DNA of 32,000 bases from Nanoarchaeum equitans Kin4-M (GTDB taxonomy: Archaea > Nanobdellota > Nanobdellia > Nanobdellales > Nanoarchaeaceae). Position numbers and translations under genes: made by a program. Within the stretch, counting starts at the first letter, position 1, and every line of letters starts with the position of its first letter. The notes beneath the pieces were generated by a model. The model did not search any database. It was given only the letters and a program-made list of their open reading frames with translations, and was not told where the DNA came from. Below are positions 3,862-30,798 of this stretch, one piece after another. The stretch lies in NCBI GenBank assembly GCA_000008085.1, contig AE017199.1, positions 330,001 to 362,000 on the forward strand, in the 5' to 3' direction.

Positions 3862-4560
3862 ATGCGCGTAATAGTATTCTTCGTAGAGCCTGAGAAAGTT
3901 GATAACATAGGAGCAATGGCAAGGGTTTGCAAAAACTTTAATGCAGATTTATATTTAATTAACCCAAAAGTAGATAACTACGAAAAAGCCTTTGTTGTAG
4001 CAAAGCATGCCCAAGATTTATTGCAAAAAGCGATAGAGAATAAGCTAAATAGTATAGATGAAGCAAAAGAATTAGTTGATATAAGTGTGGGCACTACAGG
4101 AAAAATAGCTAACGAATACAATGTATTAAGAAGCCCTTTAAAACCATGGGAATTAGCAGAGAGGTTTGCCAATAGCGATATAAAACTTGGTATATTTATT
4201 GGAAGAGAAAGCATAGGTTTAACTAATGAAGAGCTATCAAAAATGGATTTTATTGTTACTATTCCTGCGAATAAAGAATATCCAATACTAAATGCTACCC
4301 ATGCTACAGCAATAATTTTATATGAATTATTCAAACATTCAAAAGAAGGGCATGTTAATTTAGCTTTACCAAAAAAAGAACAAATCGATGTTTTATTAGA
4401 TTATGTGAAGAAAATAATTGATAAACTGCCTCAACCAGATTATAGAAAGGAATATTATTTTATAATAATGAGAAAACTTATTACGCAAGGCATAATAAAT
4501 AGCAGGGAAGCCAATACATTAATTGGGTTTTTTAGATCTATATATGAAAATCTCAAATGA
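3862..4560 (+). CDS. SPOUT-class RNA 2'-O-methyltransferase (SpoU/TrmH, TrmJ/LasT-like)
   Basis: 232 aa. VFFVEPEKVDNIGAMARVCKNFNADLYLINPK (SpoU motif 1), IFIGRESIGLTNEEL (motif 2), and LNATHATAIILYEL (motif 3, knot). Confidence 0.75.
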   Translation: MRVIVFFVEPEKVDNIGAMARVCKNFNADLYLINPKVDNYEKAFVVAKHAQDLLQKAIENKLNSIDEAKELVDISVGTTGKIANEYNVLRSPLKPWELAERFANSDIKLGIFIGRESIGLTNEELSKMDFIVTIPANKEYPILNATHATAIILYELFKHSKEGHVNLALPKKEQIDVLLDYVKKIIDKLPQPDYRKEYYFIIMRKLITQGIINSREANTLIGFFRSIYENLK

Positions 4561-4606
4561 AGATATTGTGTGCTTCTGAACTAATGATGAAAGGAGCAGG
4601 AACAGA
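4557..4606 (+). ncRNA. C/D box sRNA (sRNA-1)
   Basis: AUGAAGA-UAUUGUGUGCUU-CUGA-ACUA-AUGAUGA-AAGGAGCAGGAA-CAGA. This is C, a 12-nt guide, D', a 4-nt spacer, C', a 12-nt guide, and D, 50 nt in total. The C box contains the UGA stop codon (4558-4560) of the upstream gene. The C(U5>A)/D(U2>A) change is compensatory at the K-turn U:U position. Confidence 0.65.
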
Positions 4607-4614
4607 TTATTAAA
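4607..4614 (+). promoter_or_regulatory. TATA box for the 4635 gene
   Basis: TTATTAAA followed by 20 nt, then the A of ATG at 4635. The box abuts the D box of sRNA-1. Confidence 0.6.
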
Positions 4615-5378: not shown

Positions 5379-7457
5379 ATCCATGGCATAGAGCCAAGAG
5401 AATACCAAAAAAGAATATTCGAGACCGCTAAAAACTATAATACATTAATAGTATTGCCAACAGGTTTAGGGAAAACAGTAATAGCGTTAATGCTAATAGA
5501 GTATTTCAAACAAAAATACCCGGATAAAAAGATATTGTTTTTAGCTCCTACAAAACCTTTGGTTAATCAACATGTGGAATTTTTAAGAAAATATAGCGAT
5601 ATAGATCCAACAAAAATAGTTGGTATAAGTGGGGACATACCAAAAGAAAAAAGGGTAAAACTTTATAATGCCGATGTTATAGTTGCAACTCCCCAAACCA
5701 TAAAAAATGATTTGGCCAATAACTTAATAGATTTGAACAAATTCTCTTTAATTATATTTGATGAAGCGCATAGGGCTGTGGGTAACTATTCTTACACATA
5801 TATAGCTCGCAATTTCAATAATAGAATTGTAGGCCTAACCGCTTCCCCTGGGAGCGATGAAGAGAAAATAAAAGAAATAATAGAAAACTTAAAAATAGAG
5901 AGAATAGAATATAGAAACGAAGATTCCTCAGATGTTAGACCTTATGTAAAGAAAAAGGTTATAAAATATATCGGGGTAGCATTAGACAAAGAAATACTTA
6001 CAGCTTCTTCTCTTATACAAGAGGCGATAGAGATAAGGAAGAAAAAATTGGAAGAGCTTGGCATATTAAAGAGAAAAATAAAGGATATTGCTTTATTAAT
6101 GGAAGAGCTAAAGAAGAAACAAGCTTATAGCTTAGATGAAAGGGTAAAAGATGCTATAATTATTGGTTCTGAAATTTTAATTTTATTCCATGCTTTGAAA
6201 ACATTGCAAACCCAAACATATAGAGCATTTCTTAAATTTTGTGAAAACCTCTTCGAAAATGCCCAGAAATTAAGTGAAAAAAATGTTGCCGAAGATGTAA
6301 GGCTAAAAAAAGCATATTTGTATGTTAAAGATTTAGTTAAACAAGGCAAAGAACATCCAAAAATTAATGCTTTGTTAGAGATAATAAAAAAGAATAAAGA
6401 CAAAAAAATTATAGTTTTTGCCCAGCTTACAGATACGGTAATGCAGATAACTGAATTATTGAACAAAAATAACATAAAAGCTGTAGCGTTTACTGGTAAA
6501 AAGCTTATGACTCAAAAAAAGCAAATAGAGACTTTAGACAAATTTAGGGCTAATATATATAATGTTTTGGTTGCTTCTTCTGTTGCAGAAGAAGGGTTAG
6601 ATATACCGAAGGTGGATTTAGTAATATTTTATGAACCTATTCCCTCTGCAATTAGGGCCATACAAAGAAAAGGTAGAACCGGCAGGTTAAACTACGGTGA
6701 AGTAATAATATTGTATTCTAAAAATACTTTAGATGAAAAAGCTCTTTGGGCCTCTATTAGAAAAGAAAAAAAGATGTATGAAATATTGGAAAAACTTTCT
6801 AAAGAGGTTAAACCAAAAAAAGAGCAAACTTTAAACGAAGTATTGGGATTTAGATATAAAATTATTGCTGACCAAAGAGAACAAAATTCTTTAGTAGTAG
6901 ATGCGTTAAAAAAATTAGGTATAGGGGTTAAAATTGAGAATTTAGAGGTTGGCGATTATATAGTTGGCGATGTAGTAATAGAAAGAAAAACTATTAGGGA
7001 TTTCGTTGATTCTATAATAGATAATAGGATATGGGATCAAATGAATAAATTATCGCAATTAGATAAAAAACTTTTAATATTGGAAGGAGAAGAAGACCCA
7101 TATTTTATTAGAGATGTTAACCCCAATGTTATAAGGAGTGTTATATTAACTTTATCCTTAAAAGGGATACCAATAATAAGAACTAAAAACCCTATTGATA
7201 CAGCTTATTACATTAAAGTTTTGTCTGAAAAACAAAATAAACTGCCACAAATACCTAAAATAAAGAAAAAAGAACTAACTCCTAAAGAGGTTTTAGCTTC
7301 TTTTCCTGGTATTGGTGAAAAGAGTGCCGAAGAGCTATTAAAAAGATACAAAACTATAAAAAATGTTGTTAATGCTTCTTTATCGGGTTTATCTATTATT
7401 TTGGGGGAAAAGCGTGCTAAGAAGCTTAAAGAATTTTTAGAGAAAGAATATCAGTAG
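5379..7457 (+). CDS. hef: Hef-type helicase-nuclease (SF2 helicase + XPF/Mus81 nuclease + HhH2); start codon unresolved
   Basis: Helicase motifs LPTGLGKT, FDEAH, TASPG, QRKGRTGR. Nuclease motif GDYIVGDVVIERKTIRDFVDSI (GDXnERKX3D). C-terminal FPGIGEKSAEELL helix-hairpin-helix. The track starts at TTG 5454, but the in-frame upstream sequence IEPREYQKRIFETAKNYNTLIV (Q-motif region) is open back to 5376. Confidence 0.85.
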   Translation: MHGIEPREYQKRIFETAKNYNTLIVLPTGLGKTVIALMLIEYFKQKYPDKKILFLAPTKPLVNQHVEFLRKYSDIDPTKIVGISGDIPKEKRVKLYNADVIVATPQTIKNDLANNLIDLNKFSLIIFDEAHRAVGNYSYTYIARNFNNRIVGLTASPGSDEEKIKEIIENLKIERIEYRNEDSSDVRPYVKKKVIKYIGVALDKEILTASSLIQEAIEIRKKKLEELGILKRKIKDIALLMEELKKKQAYSLDERVKDAIIIGSEILILFHALKTLQTQTYRAFLKFCENLFENAQKLSEKNVAEDVRLKKAYLYVKDLVKQGKEHPKINALLEIIKKNKDKKIIVFAQLTDTVMQITELLNKNNIKAVAFTGKKLMTQKKQIETLDKFRANIYNVLVASSVAEEGLDIPKVDLVIFYEPIPSAIRAIQRKGRTGRLNYGEVIILYSKNTLDEKALWASIRKEKKMYEILEKLSKEVKPKKEQTLNEVLGFRYKIIADQREQNSLVVDALKKLGIGVKIENLEVGDYIVGDVVIERKTIRDFVDSIIDNRIWDQMNKLSQLDKKLLILEGEEDPYFIRDVNPNVIRSVILTLSLKGIPIIRTKNPIDTAYYIKVLSEKQNKLPQIPKIKKKELTPKEVLASFPGIGEKSAEELLKRYKTIKNVVNASLSGLSIILGEKRAKKLKEFLEKEYQ

Positions 7458-7500
7458 TGCCCATCACTCTTCATCTCTCTGGGTAGCCGTATGTCATCAT
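7451..7500 (-). ncRNA. C/D box sRNA (sRNA-2), D' guide complementary to the 16S rRNA 3' domain
   Basis: Minus strand: AUGAUGA-CAUACGGCUACC-CAGA-GAG-AUGAAGA-GUGAUGGGCACUA-CUGA, 50 nt. The C box contains the rps5 stop codon. The D box overlaps the last sense codon of hef. The first guide is complementary to GGUAGCCGUA, the conserved archaeal 16S sequence just upstream of helix 45. Confidence 0.8.
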
Positions 7501-8192
7501 TTGTTTATTATAGAGCCTTCTGTATAGCCAGAGAACTTTATAAAGAATGGTTGTACTCTTACATTCGATAGCTTCTTCAAAGCATCGAATACTGCAAATA
7601 CATGGTTCATTTTAGTTTTGGTCTTACCGAAAGATCTAACCCAAACATCTTTTATTCCGGCCAATCTAAATATTTTCTTTATCTCATCGTCTGCAACTAT
7701 TCCTACTCCCTTTGGAGCTGGTTTTAATATAACTCTAACACTTCCGGATTTGCCCTCAACTTGGTATGGAATAGAATGGGGAGCCCCACAAGCACATTCC
7801 CAAGAACCACAACCTCTCGCAACTTTTATTATATTTAGTTTAGCTCTATTAATAGCTTTTTCTCTAGCTATCAATAAATCGGAGCTTCTTCCTAATCCAA
7901 CTCCAACATGGCCATCTTTGTCTCCTACTATGGCAATAACTTCGTATCTCGTTTTATTACCTTCAGCAGTTTTCTTTTGTGCCATTCTATATGGTTTTTT
8001 AGACCTAAACTTACCTCTTATTATACGCCATTTCATAAATTCAACCTCTAAATTTGGTAACAATACATCAACTATCTCTGGTTCTCTAATAACATATTTA
8101 TTAGATAATATCTCATCTATATTTGTTATTTTACCCTCTTTGACTAACCTGCCTAACTTGGTTTTAGGTTGCCATTCCTCTATATTAACCAT
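7497..8192 (-). CDS. rps5: 30S ribosomal protein uS5
   Basis: 231 aa. VIAIVGDKDGHVGVGLGRSSDLLIAREKAINRAKLNII and the C-terminal GIVADDEIKKIFRLAGIKDVW are typical of S5. GTTTTAAA at 8221-8214 gives a start 1 nt before the ATG. Confidence 0.9.
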   Translation of the reverse strand: MVNIEEWQPKTKLGRLVKEGKITNIDEILSNKYVIREPEIVDVLLPNLEVEFMKWRIIRGKFRSKKPYRMAQKKTAEGNKTRYEVIAIVGDKDGHVGVGLGRSSDLLIAREKAINRAKLNIIKVARGCGSWECACGAPHSIPYQVEGKSGSVRVILKPAPKGVGIVADDEIKKIFRLAGIKDVWVRSFGKTKTKMNHVFAVFDALKKLSNVRVQPFFIKFSGYTEGSIINK

Positions 8193-9410: not shown

Positions 9411-9567
9411 GGCAAGGGACCGGCGGCCGAGAGGTGTAACCTATGACTGTCCCGTCAGGGATAGGATGAATAGGTCCCACCGCGGCCGTCGACAGCCCGG
9501 CACGAGAGTCCCCGAGTGAGAAGGCTATGGCCGTCGATGAGCTCGGGTGTTAGTGTGCGGGCAACAC
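9411..9567 (+). ncRNA. two-hairpin box H/ACA guide sRNA
   Basis: GC-rich island. Hairpin 1: a 9-bp lower stem (9421-9429/9483-9491), a pocket (AGAGGUGUAA / UCCCACCG), a 5-bp upper stem (9440-44/9470-74), a K-turn (GA 9445-46 opposite the GAU bulge plus GA at 9465-69), a 7-bp stem with a GUCA loop, and ACA at 9492-94. Hairpin 2: a lower stem (9495-9503/9555-9562), a pocket (GAGAGU / UGUUAGU), an upper stem (9511-16/9542-47), an identical GAU-GA K-turn (9536-40 opposite GA 9518-19), an apical stem with a UAUG loop, and ACA at 9564-66. Both ACA boxes lie 14-16 nt from the top of the 3' pocket strand. A T5 run follows. Confidence 0.8.
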
Positions 9568-9575
9568 TTTTTAAA
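9568..9575 (+). promoter_or_regulatory. TTTTTAAA: oligo-T terminator of the H/ACA RNA doubling as the TATA box of rpl41e
   Basis: T5 immediately follows the second ACA box. The same octamer lies 20 nt before 9596, and the ATG is at 9597. Confidence 0.6.
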
Positions 9576-9596
9576 TGTTATCTTTCTTTTTCCCCA

Positions 9597-9704
9597 ATGA
9601 AGAGATCTAGTAGGAGATGGAAAAAATATATGCAATCTCGATGGAAATGGCAGAAAAAGAGAATGAGGAGAGAAAAACGTAAAAGGAGGATGATGAGGAG
9701 ATGA
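9597..9704 (+). CDS. rpl41e: 50S ribosomal protein eL41
   Basis: 35 aa: MKRSSRRWKKYMQSRWKWQKKRMRREKRKRRMMRR. The W-x-KKRMRR-x-KRKRR core is the eL41 signature. It begins at Met28 of the 9516..9704 track ORF, whose upstream part lies inside the H/ACA RNA. Confidence 0.8.
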   Translation: MKRSSRRWKKYMQSRWKWQKKRMRREKRKRRMMRR

Positions 9705-10183
9705 AATTCTCACTAAAGGTTTTAGTTATATTCCTTTATAGTGCTTTTTTAATAACATTTCTCGATTTGTATGTTAACTATCTAAAGGGAGAAACATTTA
9801 GATATATATTTTTTGATTTGGTTGGTTATCATATATTTCCATATTTGTTTGTTTTGATAGCGCCTTGGTTACCTTTAATTATTTTCTACCCGGAAAAACT
9901 AAATATATGGATTGCCGGAATAATAGCGAGCTCTTTGATTAACGATTTGGTATGGTGTATATTTTATTCAATAGACAATTGCTTATATAGAGAATTTCTT
10001 TCAAACGATATATGGATGGTTTTAGATATAGGGATAAAAATCAAAATACCGGGGATAGCGATGCTATTTTTTAGTATAGCGAGAGTTTTGCTAATAATTT
10101 ATTTAACTAGAGAGTATCTTTTTAATTTTTTCAGGCAAATAGTCAATATAAAGTTTCCCATTAACAAACGCATAAGGGTATAG
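9701..10183 (+). CDS. hypothetical integral membrane protein
   Basis: 160 aa with 4-5 predicted TM helices. Its ATG overlaps the rpl41e stop (ATGA), suggesting translational coupling. The 3' end overlaps the convergent 1012-aa gene by 81 nt. Confidence 0.5.
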   Translation: MKFSLKVLVIFLYSAFLITFLDLYVNYLKGETFRYIFFDLVGYHIFPYLFVLIAPWLPLIIFYPEKLNIWIAGIIASSLINDLVWCIFYSIDNCLYREFLSNDIWMVLDIGIKIKIPGIAMLFFSIARVLLIIYLTREYLFNFFRQIVNIKFPINKRIRV

Positions 10184-13141
10184 CTTTTTCTCTAAATATT
10201 GGTTATACAATAAATACTTTACCCCAACTTTCTTTAATTCTTCTATCGAGGCTTTCTCTATATATTGCTGCAATTGATATACGGCATAAGCTTCCTCTAC
10301 TTCATTTAATTGTTTGTCTCCAACTAATTTGGCAACCCTTCTAAAATCTTCGGGGCTATTAACATATAACCTCGCTCTTAAGCAGTAATCTCCATAAGCT
10401 TTTAGTATGGCTAATTTAGATTGCCCATCTAAATGTTTCAAAGCACACTTTACCGAATCATAATCACATAGTTTAGCTTTCTCTATACAGCTTTTAGTTA
10501 TTTCTATTTTGGCCTCTTTTGGAAGTTTGTCCCAGCAACTTACACAACAATTATCAATATTTTTAGCATGGCCTTTTATTTTGAATATCGCATCATATAA
10601 CATTTTATAAGTATCGGAAACAACATTTGTTATTTTTTCTAATAGTTTTTGTATATTTCCTATTAACCCATTAATGAAACCTATTGAATCTTTTAACAAA
10701 AGCAACGCACTAACTGCTCCCGCTCCAACAAATGGTATTGCTGCTGCTCCTGGTATTAATACACCAATGGCACACTCTAATATGGGGAAAACTATTTTAG
10801 CTAATATCATTAACAGGGAATTTACTATATATAATACGGCTAATATGTTTGCTAACATGTATGCAATATCTATTAGCGAAGGCATTTTACCATCTCTAAT
10901 ATTGGCTATCAAAGAATCTACTTCTTTTTTAGATTTGCCTAACATCGCATTTATTTGATCTATTTGTTTTTCCATATTAGAATTGCCCAAATCACATAGA
11001 TACAATAAACCGTCTAATTTGCTTACATCTATGTTTGCGAAATTTTTTAATACTCTCTCTATTTGGTCTTTGTTTTCTCCAACCACTTTGGCATAGCCAT
11101 TTTTTACTTCTAATGACAATTGGTATAAATATAATAAGTTCTTTTTACATTGCGATAATTTATTATAATCGAACCTATTTTTATAATAGTTTATCAAAAA
11201 GTTGAATAGCTTAGAACAGGATAATCGCGTTATAGATGTGTTATCCCAATATTTTACTATTAAATCAGCAACTCTAATTAGCTTGCTATCTAATGAAGGA
11301 TGTTGGTAGAAATCATACAATATGGCCATTTCATTATAAAGCTCTTCCGCTTTCTCCCTTAGCTCTGTGCTATTGTTATATTGTAATTCTTGGGCATATT
11401 GTTTATACACAGATTTTACATATTGATAAGTAAGGTTTGCGGCTTCTTTGACATAGTCCAATAACAAGTTTTTCTCTTTCGAGCTAACCAAATAAGAATA
11501 ATATAAAACTTTGTTTAACCACAAGTTTTTGTTATTGAATTCGTTTATCTCTTTATCTATTTTTTTCGCAATAAATGATATTAAAATTAAGGGATTTGCT
11601 TTATCTCTTATATCGTTTACTATATTGTTAGCGCATTTGTAAACAAATAAAAACCTATAATCGCTTGTATCAACATAAGTTACTTGTTTGTGTTTAGATA
11701 TTATCCAAATTGAGTTAAAATATACGTTACCTTTTCCAGTTTTTCCCTTAGTTCTTAAGAATTTATTACTATTGCTAATTATATATTGGTAGTTAGACCC
11801 AAACCCAAAATACCCGGCAATATCTTTATTACAACTACTTACTTTGGTGTTTAAGCTTTGAACCCACCTTTTTTTGTTTTCTACATAATTATATAAATCA
11901 TATTCATAACCTGCATATTCTTCATCGCCAGCATATACATTGTTTATATTAGAATAGCATTCTTTTAAGTTACAGTTACAATTTAAGTCTGTATTGTTAT
12001 CATTGGAAGCCCAACCATAATTACTATCATATTTGGGAGTAACTATAGTTTTAATTTTCCCTACATTGTTTATTATATCGTAAAATTCCTTCATACGGCT
12101 TTTTATATTAGAAAGATGTGATTTTAGTTGTTTTAAATCGTTCTGCGCTTTGCTAAGCAAATTAGATAGCAATAGCAATATTATTATTAATGGTGCCATC
12201 GTTGTTACATAATCTAAACAAAATCTGCTCGCTTTTATTTTAATTTTGGCTTCATACTCCAATGGGGGTAGTTCTATTTGAGAATCGAACCTATTATTAA
12301 AAACATACGATGGAACAGTTATAGACATTTTTTGATTAACATTTATTGGATTGTTAAAAGAGATAGACAATAAATTATTACCAAAATTGGATATAATAGA
12401 ACAAGCACTTCTTGCTATGCTCTCTATTATCCTATTTAATGGTATTTCAAACCGAGGAATACATACCCCACAAAGAAATGGAAAATTAAAGAATATATTG
12501 CCTATTCTATAATTGAACTCTATTCTTTTATTTATTTGGGCGTTTACATTTACATTGGAAAAACCAACATTGATCGGTTTCCCCTCTAAAGGTTTATTCT
12601 CTATTATCGATTTCTGTATTTCTTCGCCTTTCGCTTCTAATATTGTTTTGCCCCTTTCCTCTTTGGAAAAAGTTTTATAATACCTATTCCCAAATATGTT
12701 GCTATCTAAAATAAGGTTTACCCTAATGTATGGCCATTTTATTTTGTATTTTTCATTAGGGTTTACATCATTGGGAGTGCCTGTTACATAAACTATTGGT
12801 TTTAAACCTATATTTGTGTTAAAATTAATTTTGGGCTTAATATTTAGATTACATACTATGTTTATCCATGGGTTTGTTCCAATTAATGAACTATATCTTT
12901 TTTCTATTTCATTAGGCTTTGGGGGCAAAGGATAATTTAGATTAACCCTTGGATTACTATTTAAAGCGCTTTTCATTAAATTTGGGCTAACAAAATTAAT
13001 CGGTATATTAATATTTGGCTTACCAGGATTGACATTGTATAAACCAGTATATTTATATGTATTGGTTTCTATGTCTATAGATAATTGAGATACTGCTATA
13101 GGAGTAAATATTAATAGTGAGGCCAAAAAGTAATGGCGCAC
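10103..13141 (-). CDS. large (1012 aa) secreted/membrane-anchored protein, function unknown
   Basis: GTG start at 13141, exactly 20 nt downstream of ATTTTAAA (13169-13162). N-terminal signal-like MRHYFLASLLIFTPIAVSQL. An Asn/Pro-rich, beta-like N-terminal third. Internal hydrophobic segments (MAPLIIILLLLSNLL; IAYMLANILAVLYIVNSLLMILAKIVFPILECAIGVLIPGAAAIPFVGAGAVSALLLL). A Cys-rich helical C-terminus. Confidence 0.7.
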   Translation of the reverse strand: MRHYFLASLLIFTPIAVSQLSIDIETNTYKYTGLYNVNPGKPNINIPINFVSPNLMKSALNSNPRVNLNYPLPPKPNEIEKRYSSLIGTNPWINIVCNLNIKPKINFNTNIGLKPIVYVTGTPNDVNPNEKYKIKWPYIRVNLILDSNIFGNRYYKTFSKEERGKTILEAKGEEIQKSIIENKPLEGKPINVGFSNVNVNAQINKRIEFNYRIGNIFFNFPFLCGVCIPRFEIPLNRIIESIARSACSIISNFGNNLLSISFNNPINVNQKMSITVPSYVFNNRFDSQIELPPLEYEAKIKIKASRFCLDYVTTMAPLIIILLLLSNLLSKAQNDLKQLKSHLSNIKSRMKEFYDIINNVGKIKTIVTPKYDSNYGWASNDNNTDLNCNCNLKECYSNINNVYAGDEEYAGYEYDLYNYVENKKRWVQSLNTKVSSCNKDIAGYFGFGSNYQYIISNSNKFLRTKGKTGKGNVYFNSIWIISKHKQVTYVDTSDYRFLFVYKCANNIVNDIRDKANPLILISFIAKKIDKEINEFNNKNLWLNKVLYYSYLVSSKEKNLLLDYVKEAANLTYQYVKSVYKQYAQELQYNNSTELREKAEELYNEMAILYDFYQHPSLDSKLIRVADLIVKYWDNTSITRLSCSKLFNFLINYYKNRFDYNKLSQCKKNLLYLYQLSLEVKNGYAKVVGENKDQIERVLKNFANIDVSKLDGLLYLCDLGNSNMEKQIDQINAMLGKSKKEVDSLIANIRDGKMPSLIDIAYMLANILAVLYIVNSLLMILAKIVFPILECAIGVLIPGAAAIPFVGAGAVSALLLLKDSIGFINGLIGNIQKLLEKITNVVSDTYKMLYDAIFKIKGHAKNIDNCCVSCWDKLPKEAKIEITKSCIEKAKLCDYDSVKCALKHLDGQSKLAILKAYGDYCLRARLYVNSPEDFRRVAKLVGDKQLNEVEEAYAVYQLQQYIEKASIEELKKVGVKYLLYNQYLEKKLYPYAFVNGKLYIDYLPEKIKKILSS

Positions 13142-29134: not shown

Positions 29135-29446
29135 ATGGAAATTATCAAAGAAGAACCAATCACTAATGAAAAAGCCTATCAAATATTGGCTAAACAAAAA
29201 CAATTATCTTATAGAGCAGAAAGAACGAAAAAGTATTTGGAAAAAATCGGTTTTATAAAGAATAGTGACGAAATATTAAAGCAATTGGTTGATTTAGGCA
29301 TAGAGTTGGAAAAAGCGATAATGATTGTAAATACTATGCCAAAAACAAACGATGAAGTAAGGGCTATATTAGAAAAAGATTACACCCCCGAAATAGGCAA
29401 AAAAGTATTAGAAATAATGAAGAAGGCTTTAAGCTCTGAAAAATGA
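29135..29446 (+). CDS. rpoF: DNA-directed RNA polymerase subunit Rpo4 (RpoF)
   Basis: 103 aa from the ATG at 29135. The track ORF starts at TTG 29117, inside the promoter. ITNEKAYQILAK..LSYRAERTKKYLEKI...AIMIVNTMPKTNDEVRAIL fits the Rpb4/RpoF pattern. Confidence 0.7.
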   Translation: MEIIKEEPITNEKAYQILAKQKQLSYRAERTKKYLEKIGFIKNSDEILKQLVDLGIELEKAIMIVNTMPKTNDEVRAILEKDYTPEIGKKVLEIMKKALSSEK

Positions 29447-29466
29447 TGACCCCTGGCAGGGACAGA
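29417..29466 (+). ncRNA. C/D box sRNA (sRNA-3)
   Basis: AUGAAGA-AGGCUUUAAGCU-CUGA-AAA-AUGAUGA-CCCCUGGCAGGGA-CAGA, 50 nt. The first half overlaps the last 10 codons of rpoF. C' contains the rpoF stop codon. The D box ends 1 nt before the stop of the convergent pepA. Box variants are the same as in sRNA-1. Confidence 0.6.
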
Positions 29467-30798
29467 TTATAGCTTTTGAACCAATTTATATAATAACCTA
29501 ACCCCAAACCCCGTTAATCCTTTGTATGCGCTTGGTATTGCCCTATTAGCTATCGCTGGCCCAGCGATATCTAAATGTAGGAATTTTTCTATAGGGCTAA
29601 ACTCTTTCAAAAATAGCCCTCCCTGGATTGCATGCGCTTCTCTCCCATTAGCATTCTTAATATCTGCTACAGCACTTTTTAATAATTCTCTATAACCTTC
29701 ATATAAAGGTAATTCCCATACCAATTCGTAGACTTCCTTTCCCGCTTCAATTGCTTTATTTACTAAATCTTTTTCCCCCATCGCTGCGGCGATTTCGTGG
29801 CCCAAAGCGATTATTTGTCCTCCTGTTAATGTTGAAACCTCTATTATGGCTTTTGGATTATATTTTGCACTATAAGCAATTGCATCTGCCAATGTTAATC
29901 TTCCTTCTGCGTCGGTATTAGTTACTTCAACAGTTTTCCCATTATAAGCCTTTATTATGTCATTAACTTTATAGGATTCTCCTGAAATAACATTTTCTGC
30001 TATAGGTATTAACGCAACTATTGGAATATCTTTTTTGTTTTTAGCTATTGCATATAGCGCCCCAATTACTGCGGCAGAACCGGACATGTCTCCATGCATA
30101 TTATACATATAATCTGTGGGCTTCAACGAATAACCTCCTGTATCAAAGGTTATTGCTTTCCCAACTAAAACAATAGGGTTGTCCTTTAAATTGTATTCTA
30201 AAATAACTAACCTTGGTTTGTATATACTGCCTTTGCCTACATAAACCAATAAGTTTAACCCTTCTCTTATTAAATCGTCGTAATGTAATACTTTTATATT
30301 TACAGGCAATCCCTTAAATATCTCGATTATTTTCTTTTCATATGTTTCAGGATTTAATACATTTGGGGGTTCGTTAGCTAAATCCCTAGCTAAATATTGT
30401 GCTTCCATTAATGTGATATATTCTTTTACCTTCTCTTTGTCATCGCAAATAAATTTTATTATTTTCTCTTGCTTTTCGCTTTTGTATCTATCAAATATAT
30501 AAGATGTAGAAAGAATCCCAATAATGGCTTTATCTTTGCTCTCTATTTCTCTTAAATCTATTATAAATTCTTTGAACGGACTATTTTTTATATATCTTCC
30601 TGCTAAGAAATAGGCTTTCCATTCGTCTTTTACATAAACTATTAGATAATCTCTATCTTTTTTTACAAAAATAGCATTATCTCTTTTAAAGAAATCTTCA
30701 TCAACATTAGCATAGCTTTTTACTGATTCCCTATCTTTAAAGAACTTTACTATCACTCCCCCATCCGCGTGGTCTGTTAAATAAAATTTGGTTGGCAT
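29467..30798 (-). CDS. pepA: leucyl aminopeptidase (M17 family)
   Basis: 443 aa. VGKAITFDTGGYSLKP and NTDAEGRLTLADAIAY active-site motifs. Confidence 0.9.
   Translation of the reverse strand: MPTKFYLTDHADGGVIVKFFKDRESVKSYANVDEDFFKRDNAIFVKKDRDYLIVYVKDEWKAYFLAGRYIKNSPFKEFIIDLREIESKDKAIIGILSTSYIFDRYKSEKQEKIIKFICDDKEKVKEYITLMEAQYLARDLANEPPNVLNPETYEKKIIEIFKGLPVNIKVLHYDDLIREGLNLLVYVGKGSIYKPRLVILEYNLKDNPIVLVGKAITFDTGGYSLKPTDYMYNMHGDMSGSAAVIGALYAIAKNKKDIPIVALIPIAENVISGESYKVNDIIKAYNGKTVEVTNTDAEGRLTLADAIAYSAKYNPKAIIEVSTLTGGQIIALGHEIAAAMGEKDLVNKAIEAGKEVYELVWELPLYEGYRELLKSAVADIKNANGREAHAIQGGLFLKEFSPIEKFLHLDIAGPAIANRAIPSAYKGLTGFGVRLLYKLVQKL

Follow-up and report, generated by a model that had tools for sequence, protein, structure and literature searches.

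A box C/D sRNA in the gap between hef and rps5 of Nanoarchaeum equitans is Neq sR18, a guide for Gm1508 of 16S rRNA with a predicted second site in 23S rRNA

We identified a complete box C/D guide RNA on the minus strand between the convergent genes hef and rps5, within a 32,000-nt stretch of the Nanoarchaeum equitans genome (hereafter, the window), and its sequence identifies it as Neq sR18, which belongs to the 26 box C/D sRNAs of this archaeon. [quoted passage not shown] The explanation taken as a whole, which includes the identity of the RNA, its origin from the tail of the rps5 transcript, the guiding of both modifications and the binding of the ribonucleoprotein components, is one that we hold with very high confidence; the RNA, Gm1508 and both complementarities exist, as observed here or published. 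As a discovery, none of this is new: the sequence, expression, genomic context and 16S target of sR18, and the methyl group itself, appeared in print between 2012 and 2017, and the present result is the correct reading of a known element. Its value is one of calibration, in that a tool-free reading of the raw sequence (the first-pass annotation of this DNA) found a real guide RNA together with its experimentally confirmed target nucleotide. The additions made here are minor and comprise a near-equal site at 16S G522, a 23S site with a mismatch at the N+5 position, and a predicted site of the D guide in the GTPase-associated centre.

The mature RNA, with ends as mapped by published RNA-seq, is 58 nt long and occupies positions 7448–7505 of the minus strand, where the sequence from 7505 to 7448 reads AACAA-AUGAUGA-CAUACGGCUACC-CAGA-GAG-AUGAAGA-GUGAUGGGCACUA-CUGA-UAU. 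Box C (AUGAUGA, 7500–7494) is followed by the 12-nt D' guide CAUACGGCUACC (7493–7482), box D' (CAGA, a variant of CUGA, 7481–7478), a 3-nt spacer (GAG, 7477–7475), box C' (AUGAAGA, 7474–7468), the 13-nt D guide GUGAUGGGCACUA (7467–7455) and box D (CUGA, 7454–7451), all by reading of the sequence. Five nucleotides precede box C, so that the mature RNA begins within the S5 open reading frame, and three nucleotides follow box D. This layout is that of a canonical compact archaeal box C/D sRNA: a box C of the form RUGAUGA is found close to the 5' terminus and CUGA close to the 3' terminus, and between them are a D' and a C' box, a short spacer apart, which gives two guides, both close to the usual length of about 12 nt. 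The two deviations in the boxes have parallels in the same organism, CAGA serving as a D or D' box also in N. equitans sR1, sR5, sR7, sR8, sR9 and others, and UGAAGA being a frequent box variant among the N. equitans sRNAs; the D guide, at 13 nt versus the canonical 12, is accommodated by a one-base insertion when aligned to the profile described below. Thus, the complete minus-strand box C/D sRNA that the first-pass annotation had placed at 7451–7500 is present with every feature where it was described; this extent corresponds to the 50-nt core, whereas the mature RNA is longer.

The gap itself is flanked by two confidently assigned genes. On the plus strand, hef (NEQ387, 5454–7457) encodes the Hef helicase-nuclease (NCBIfam Hef nuclease, E = 6e-217), with helicase, ERCC4 and HhH domains matched in Pfam, and on the minus strand, rps5 (NEQ388, 7497–8192) encodes ribosomal protein S5 (NCBIfam PRK04044, E = 3e-93), with both the N- and the C-terminal Ribosomal_S5 domains matched in Pfam. 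The S5 gene is solitary, following the gene for tyrosyl-tRNA synthetase, and is not part of a ribosomal protein operon, a setting that, like the G+C content of 31%, pointed to Nanoarchaeum. From stop codon to stop codon, the convergent genes are 39 nt apart, and the 50-nt core of the sRNA spans all of this distance and overlaps both stop regions, in agreement with the earlier description of an sRNA that fills the gap. The stop codon of rps5, UGA at 7499–7497 on the minus strand, is the first UGA of the AUGAUGA of box C, so that the sRNA core does start on this codon as had been proposed. At the other end, hef terminates with ...TAT CAG TAG, and the complement of box D, TCAG (7451–7454), comprises CAG, the final sense codon, and one further base, which bears out the overlap read at first pass. 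The final 10 nt of hef are antisense to the mature sRNA, and the D guide lies opposite the stop codon of hef and the bases immediately following it.

The identification with Neq sR18 is based on an exact match: positions 7448–7505 of the minus strand are identical in 58 of 58 bases to the published sRNA18, and the sequence occurs only once in the window. The published entry (Randau 2012, PMC3491384) lists sRNA18 at 337448–337505 with a coverage of 4400, the sequence AACAAATGATGACATACGGCTACCCAGAGAGATGAAGAGTGATGGGCACTACTGATAT and the context NEQ387->sRNA18<-NEQ388<-, labels it in the table as ‘snoscan C/D box sRNA15’, and reports its detection by RNA-seq with 4,400 reads, which settles the detectability of the RNA on which the first-pass reading had been made to depend. 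The same RNA was later named NeqsR18 (Dennis 2015, PMC4644070). The flanking 40-mers in the Randau table agree with the window when compared by eye, as do the neighbours hef and S5. Furthermore, the window contains exact matches to the published sRNA17 (sR17, 4552–4611) and sRNA19 (sR19, 29412–29470), as well as a match to a published H/ACA sRNA starting at 9411, and all four RNAs are placed at a genome-to-window offset of exactly 330,000, so that the window corresponds to 330,001–362,000 of NC_005213. Between the element described here and Neq sR18 of the three earlier studies (PMC3491384, PMC4644070, PMC5389701) we found no difference: the 58 nt, the neighbours, the Gm1508 target and the predicted target 23S-1174 are the same.

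Additionally, we constructed a sequence-only profile (R1) from 21 C/D sRNAs of the published N. equitans set, with sR17, sR18 and sR19 excluded, and used it to score every position on both strands of the 32-kb window. The sR18 site was recovered as a member of the N. equitans set with 22.4 bits (E = 2.6e-6), along with sR19 (E = 1.4e-7) and sR17 (E = 2.8e-6); beyond these three, the next match in the window had an E value of only 0.76. No C/D family was found by Rfam across the whole window at gathering thresholds. In a permissive Rfam search, a dozen archaeal C/D families aligned to exactly 7448–7504, all below threshold, which we attribute to the generic box layout; the best score among RF01141 (sR18) and the other C/D families was 22.6 bits, where the threshold is 45. 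The families RF01141 (sR18), RF01139 (sR2) and RF00095 (snoPyro_CD) resemble Neq sR18 in box order and spacing, but with 14–23 bits they stay far from their gathering values of 42–45, and their guides are unrelated. The name ‘sR18’ shared by RF01141 and the N. equitans RNA is presumably a coincidence.

As the rRNA genes are located outside the window, the N. equitans 16S (1,500 nt) and 23S (2,990 nt) rRNAs were rebuilt from published alignments (Dennis 2015, PMC4644070) and checked by known PLEXY target coordinates, which fell at the expected places. Both guides were then slid along the full length of the two rRNAs, with 300 shuffled guides as the chance control. For the D' guide, the top site across both rRNAs is 16S 1464–1475 (GGUAGCCGUAGG), corresponding to 1504–1515 in E. 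coli numbering, where the N. equitans 16S reads ...ACAAGGUAGCCGUAGGGGAACC... The duplex has Watson–Crick pairs at positions 1–10, an A–G mismatch at position 11 and a C–G pair at position 12, with an energy of −17.9 kcal/mol; the score was matched by 5 of the 300 shuffled guides. The N+5 nucleotide is N. equitans G1468, equivalent to E. coli G1508, and is engaged in a C–G pair. Each of the two guides of sR18 finds an rRNA site with at least about 9 bp and a Watson–Crick pair at N+5.

These results agree closely with the first-pass annotation, which had proposed that the D' guide targets GGUAGCCGUA in the 3' region of 16S rRNA, with the methyl group on the third G of GGUAG: the motif is present in the 16S rRNA of N. 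equitans and forms 10 contiguous pairs with the guide, this site is the best match of the guide to the organism's own 16S rRNA, and the computed N+5 nucleotide is G1508. One point has to be corrected. The target had been placed just 5' of helix 45, whereas most of it belongs to helix 45, of which it forms the 5' strand (1506–1515), and only G1504–G1505 lie outside. The experiments suggested at first pass, RiboMeth-seq and primer extension on 16S rRNA, had already been published: a fragment A(Gm)Cp of N. equitans 16S rRNA, 1507–1509, was found by MALDI-MS, and Gm1508 was confirmed by primer extension at low dCTP and by RiboMeth-seq (Seistrup 2017, PMC5389701). Since these methylation tests found Gm1508, the original interpretation is supported. 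The legend of Figure 5 in the same paper names Neq sR18 as the guide for Gm1508. In the 16S and 23S alignments of Dennis 2015 (PMC4644070) there is no ‘N18’ mark, and thus no target was assigned to sR18 in that study.

The most serious alternative is that the true target of the D' guide, or an additional one, is G522 of N. equitans 16S rRNA (about E. coli 554). This site was the choice of PLEXY in 2012, reported as GGUGGmCCGUGA at 16S-522, and its duplex is nearly equal in energy to that at helix 45 (−16.9 versus −17.9 kcal/mol), with a pairing that spans N+5. However, its 10 pairs consist of 8 Watson–Crick and 2 G–U pairs, whereas the helix 45 site offers 10 unbroken Watson–Crick pairs and one further pair; moreover, Gm1508 is experimentally established with sR18 named as its guide (PMC5389701), and we found no report in the literature of a methyl group at 16S G522. 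We therefore regard a role for G522 as unlikely, although not negligible, and retain G1508 as the target. The third site of the D' guide, 23S 2797–2808, forms 11 pairs with the mismatch located exactly at N+5.

It has been noted that N. equitans is without RsmA/Dim1, and the pairing of sRNAs with the region of helices 44 and 45 was proposed to replace the maturation checkpoint (Seistrup 2017, PMC5389701); the takeover of this checkpoint by guide RNAs of helices 44/45 is thus an idea of earlier authors, and one of some biological interest. The 5' strand of helix 45 adjoins the unmethylated RsmA/Dim1 site. One form of this idea would make sR18 mainly an assembly chaperone or checkpoint, which holds the helix 45 strand unfolded until release and could also hold the 23S helix 43 or 23S 2797 site, as an RNA-based substitute for RsmA/Dim1 in which methylation is secondary. 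The absence of RsmA/Dim1 fits such a role, as does the pairing at 23S 2797–2808, which with its mismatch at N+5 is of the non-methylating type. However, the 23S 2797 match is within the range that shuffled guides sometimes attain, and since methylation of G1508 does occur, the standard guide function is sufficient; we consider it improbable that the chaperone role is the main one.

Returning to sR18 as a conventional dual guide, we searched for the target of the D guide, which at first pass had been correctly measured at 13 nt but left with no nameable target. The alignment to rRNA gave one clear best site, 23S UAGUGUCCAUCAU, with 13 contiguous pairs (11 Watson–Crick and 2 G–U), an energy of −19.3 kcal/mol and a score that was reached by 1 of the 300 shuffled guides. 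The segment aligns under E. coli 1069–1081, which we take to be the loop region of helix 43, in the GTPase-associated centre that binds L11 and thiostrepton. The N+5 nucleotide is at position 1073 and forms a C–G pair, so that the D guide would be expected to methylate this G. We found no literature report of methylation at the helix 43 site of 23S rRNA. The same site had been predicted by PLEXY as 23S-1174 (Randau 2012, PMC3491384). Neither guide plausibly targets the tRNA-Thr encoded in the window, with which the duplex energies are −10.2 and −8.9 kcal/mol at best.

With the two guides directed at different subunits, sR18 could conceivably be a two-subunit tether or timer, in which the D' guide holds the 5' strand of 16S helix 45 and the D guide holds 23S helix 43. 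Such an RNA may be part of the putative RNA-based maturation checkpoint of the Nanoarchaeota, and 23S 2797–2808 might serve as a non-methylating docking site of the D' guide; only the pairings are observed, the coupling between them being a speculation that extends Seistrup 2017, and we offer it with little confidence. By contrast, the possibility that AT-rich words resembling the boxes came together by chance in this short intergenic stretch, and that no RNA is made from it, is vanishingly small and has been disproved by published RNA-seq and by the published evidence of modification: UGAUGA-like words are frequent at a G+C content of 31%, and no Rfam match reaches its gathering threshold, but the element is an exact match to a transcript verified by RNA-seq, was recovered by an out-of-sample profile (E = 2.6e-6) that gave no false positive anywhere in the window, and has strong rRNA matches for both guides. 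The G+C content given is that of the whole window.

Several other RNAs of N. equitans act on the 3' end of 16S rRNA, namely, sR13 (Am1408 and Am1534), sR20 (Gm1530 and 23S Cm1920) and sR25 (Um1528). Like sR18, these are compact (~52–60 nt) with unpaired ends and address helix 44/45 targets in the absence of RsmA/Dim1 dimethylation, and sR20 also resembles sR18 in directing one guide to 16S and the other to 23S rRNA; unlike sR18, they carry other guides for other sites, and sR13 has its own promoter, whereas sR18 is located on the 3' end of rps5. An sRNA of Nanopusillus acidilobi, another nanoarchaeon without RsmA, is predicted to act on A1408 through its D' guide and on G1508 through its D guide (Seistrup 2017, PMC5389701). 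It shares with sR18 the G1508 guide, but carries it on the D side, next to a guide for A1408, whereas in sR18 it is on the D' side and combined with a guide for 23S helix 43.

A search of 185,579 species genomes with the exact pattern TGAWGANNTACGGCTACCCWGA for G1508 guides returned one match, in a bacterial Binatia MAG, which was treated as chance because about four chance matches are expected; the G1508 guide sRNA of N. acidilobi was not recovered by this exact-pattern scan. A tighter sR18 pattern gave zero matches in a viral contig collection. In a synteny sample of 80 metagenomic S5 loci (S5 identity ≤60%), neither an N. equitans-type C/D sRNA (R1, E ≤ 0.1, default filters) nor the guide core of sR18 was found. 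In these searches no homologue was found in relatives, a point that weighs against the explanation, and the placement of the sRNA on the 3' end of rps5 may be specific to N. equitans.

With regard to biogenesis, most C/D sRNAs of N. equitans overlap mRNAs, do not have their own promoter and are processed, whereas five sRNAs have their own promoter and terminator; sRNA18 is not listed among the five (Randau 2012, PMC3491384). sR18 is probably transcribed together with rps5 (NEQ388), at the 3' end of its transcript, from which processing would leave the 58-nt RNA. If it behaves like other archaeal box C/D sRNAs, the C/D and C'/D' boxes would fold into k-turns to which L7Ae binds, and Nop5 and fibrillarin would be recruited; fibrillarin (NEQ125) and NOP56 (NEQ342) are both present in the N. 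equitans cell (Randau 2012, PMC3491384). The genes for these two proteins are not located in this window. The D' guide pairs with helix 45 of 16S rRNA along its 5' strand (1504–1513) and directs the 2'-O-methyl group to G1508, opposite the fifth base upstream of box D', and the D guide pairs with 23S helix 43 and, by the N+5 rule, would direct a methyl group to the G at E. coli position 1073. At or just past the 3' end of the sRNA, the minus strand carries a pyrimidine run, UUCUUUCUCU (7439–7448), which is a possible archaeal terminator for the joint rps5–sRNA transcript, polypyrimidine terminators having been described in N. equitans (Randau 2012, PMC3491384). A TATA-like element, TTTATAAA (7544–7537), located inside rps5 and 32–39 nt upstream of the mature 5' end, is a candidate for an independent promoter of sR18, with a spacing that appears somewhat too great for a standard archaeal promoter.

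The 12-nt guide located 5′ of box D′ in sR18, the published box C/D sRNA encoded between the convergent hef and rps5 (S5) genes, has a further rRNA match outside the window: in the N. equitans 23S rRNA, positions 2797-2808 (Dennis 2015 alignment numbering, PMC4644070), GGUGUCCGUAUG, 11 of the 12 nucleotides pair with the guide, and the one that does not is precisely the N+5 nucleotide, opposite the fifth guide base. This segment could be a non-methylating docking site for the guide, or the match could be due to chance. On the minus strand, within the S5 reading frame, a TATA-like element, TTTATAAA (7537-7544), lies 32-39 nt upstream of the mature 5′ end of sR18; it may act as an internal promoter of low strength, or may just reflect AT-rich coding sequence.

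The sole published H/ACA sRNA of N. equitans, with two hairpins containing k-turns, lies at 9411-9574 (+; start at 9411 compared by eye with the published sequence) and was not detected by Rfam at the gathering threshold. It is flanked by an upstream TTTAAA box and a downstream T-run, with the tyrosyl-tRNA synthetase gene located downstream. The region directly downstream of this sRNA (9580-9705, +) is purine-rich, and words resembling UGAUGA or UGAAGA occur in it several times, as in GGATGATGAGGAGATGA (9687-9703, +). Because the C/D profile built from 21 other N. equitans sRNAs yielded only partial, very weak matches there (E 6-9), these box-like words are probably coding sequence or chance occurrences. 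Two overlapping ORFs, of 160 aa (9701-10183, +) and 1,012 aa (10103-13141, −), had no matches in Pfam or NCBIfam.

Two other published C/D sRNAs were located by exact sequence match. The 5′ end of sR17 (4552-4611, +) overlaps the final 9 nt of a TrmJ/SpoU-type methyltransferase ORF (3862-4560), as already recorded for NEQ384 (Randau 2012, PMC3491384), and sR19 (29412-29470, +) is the best-scoring match in the window to the same profile, from which sR17, sR18 and sR19 were left out (E 1.4e-7).
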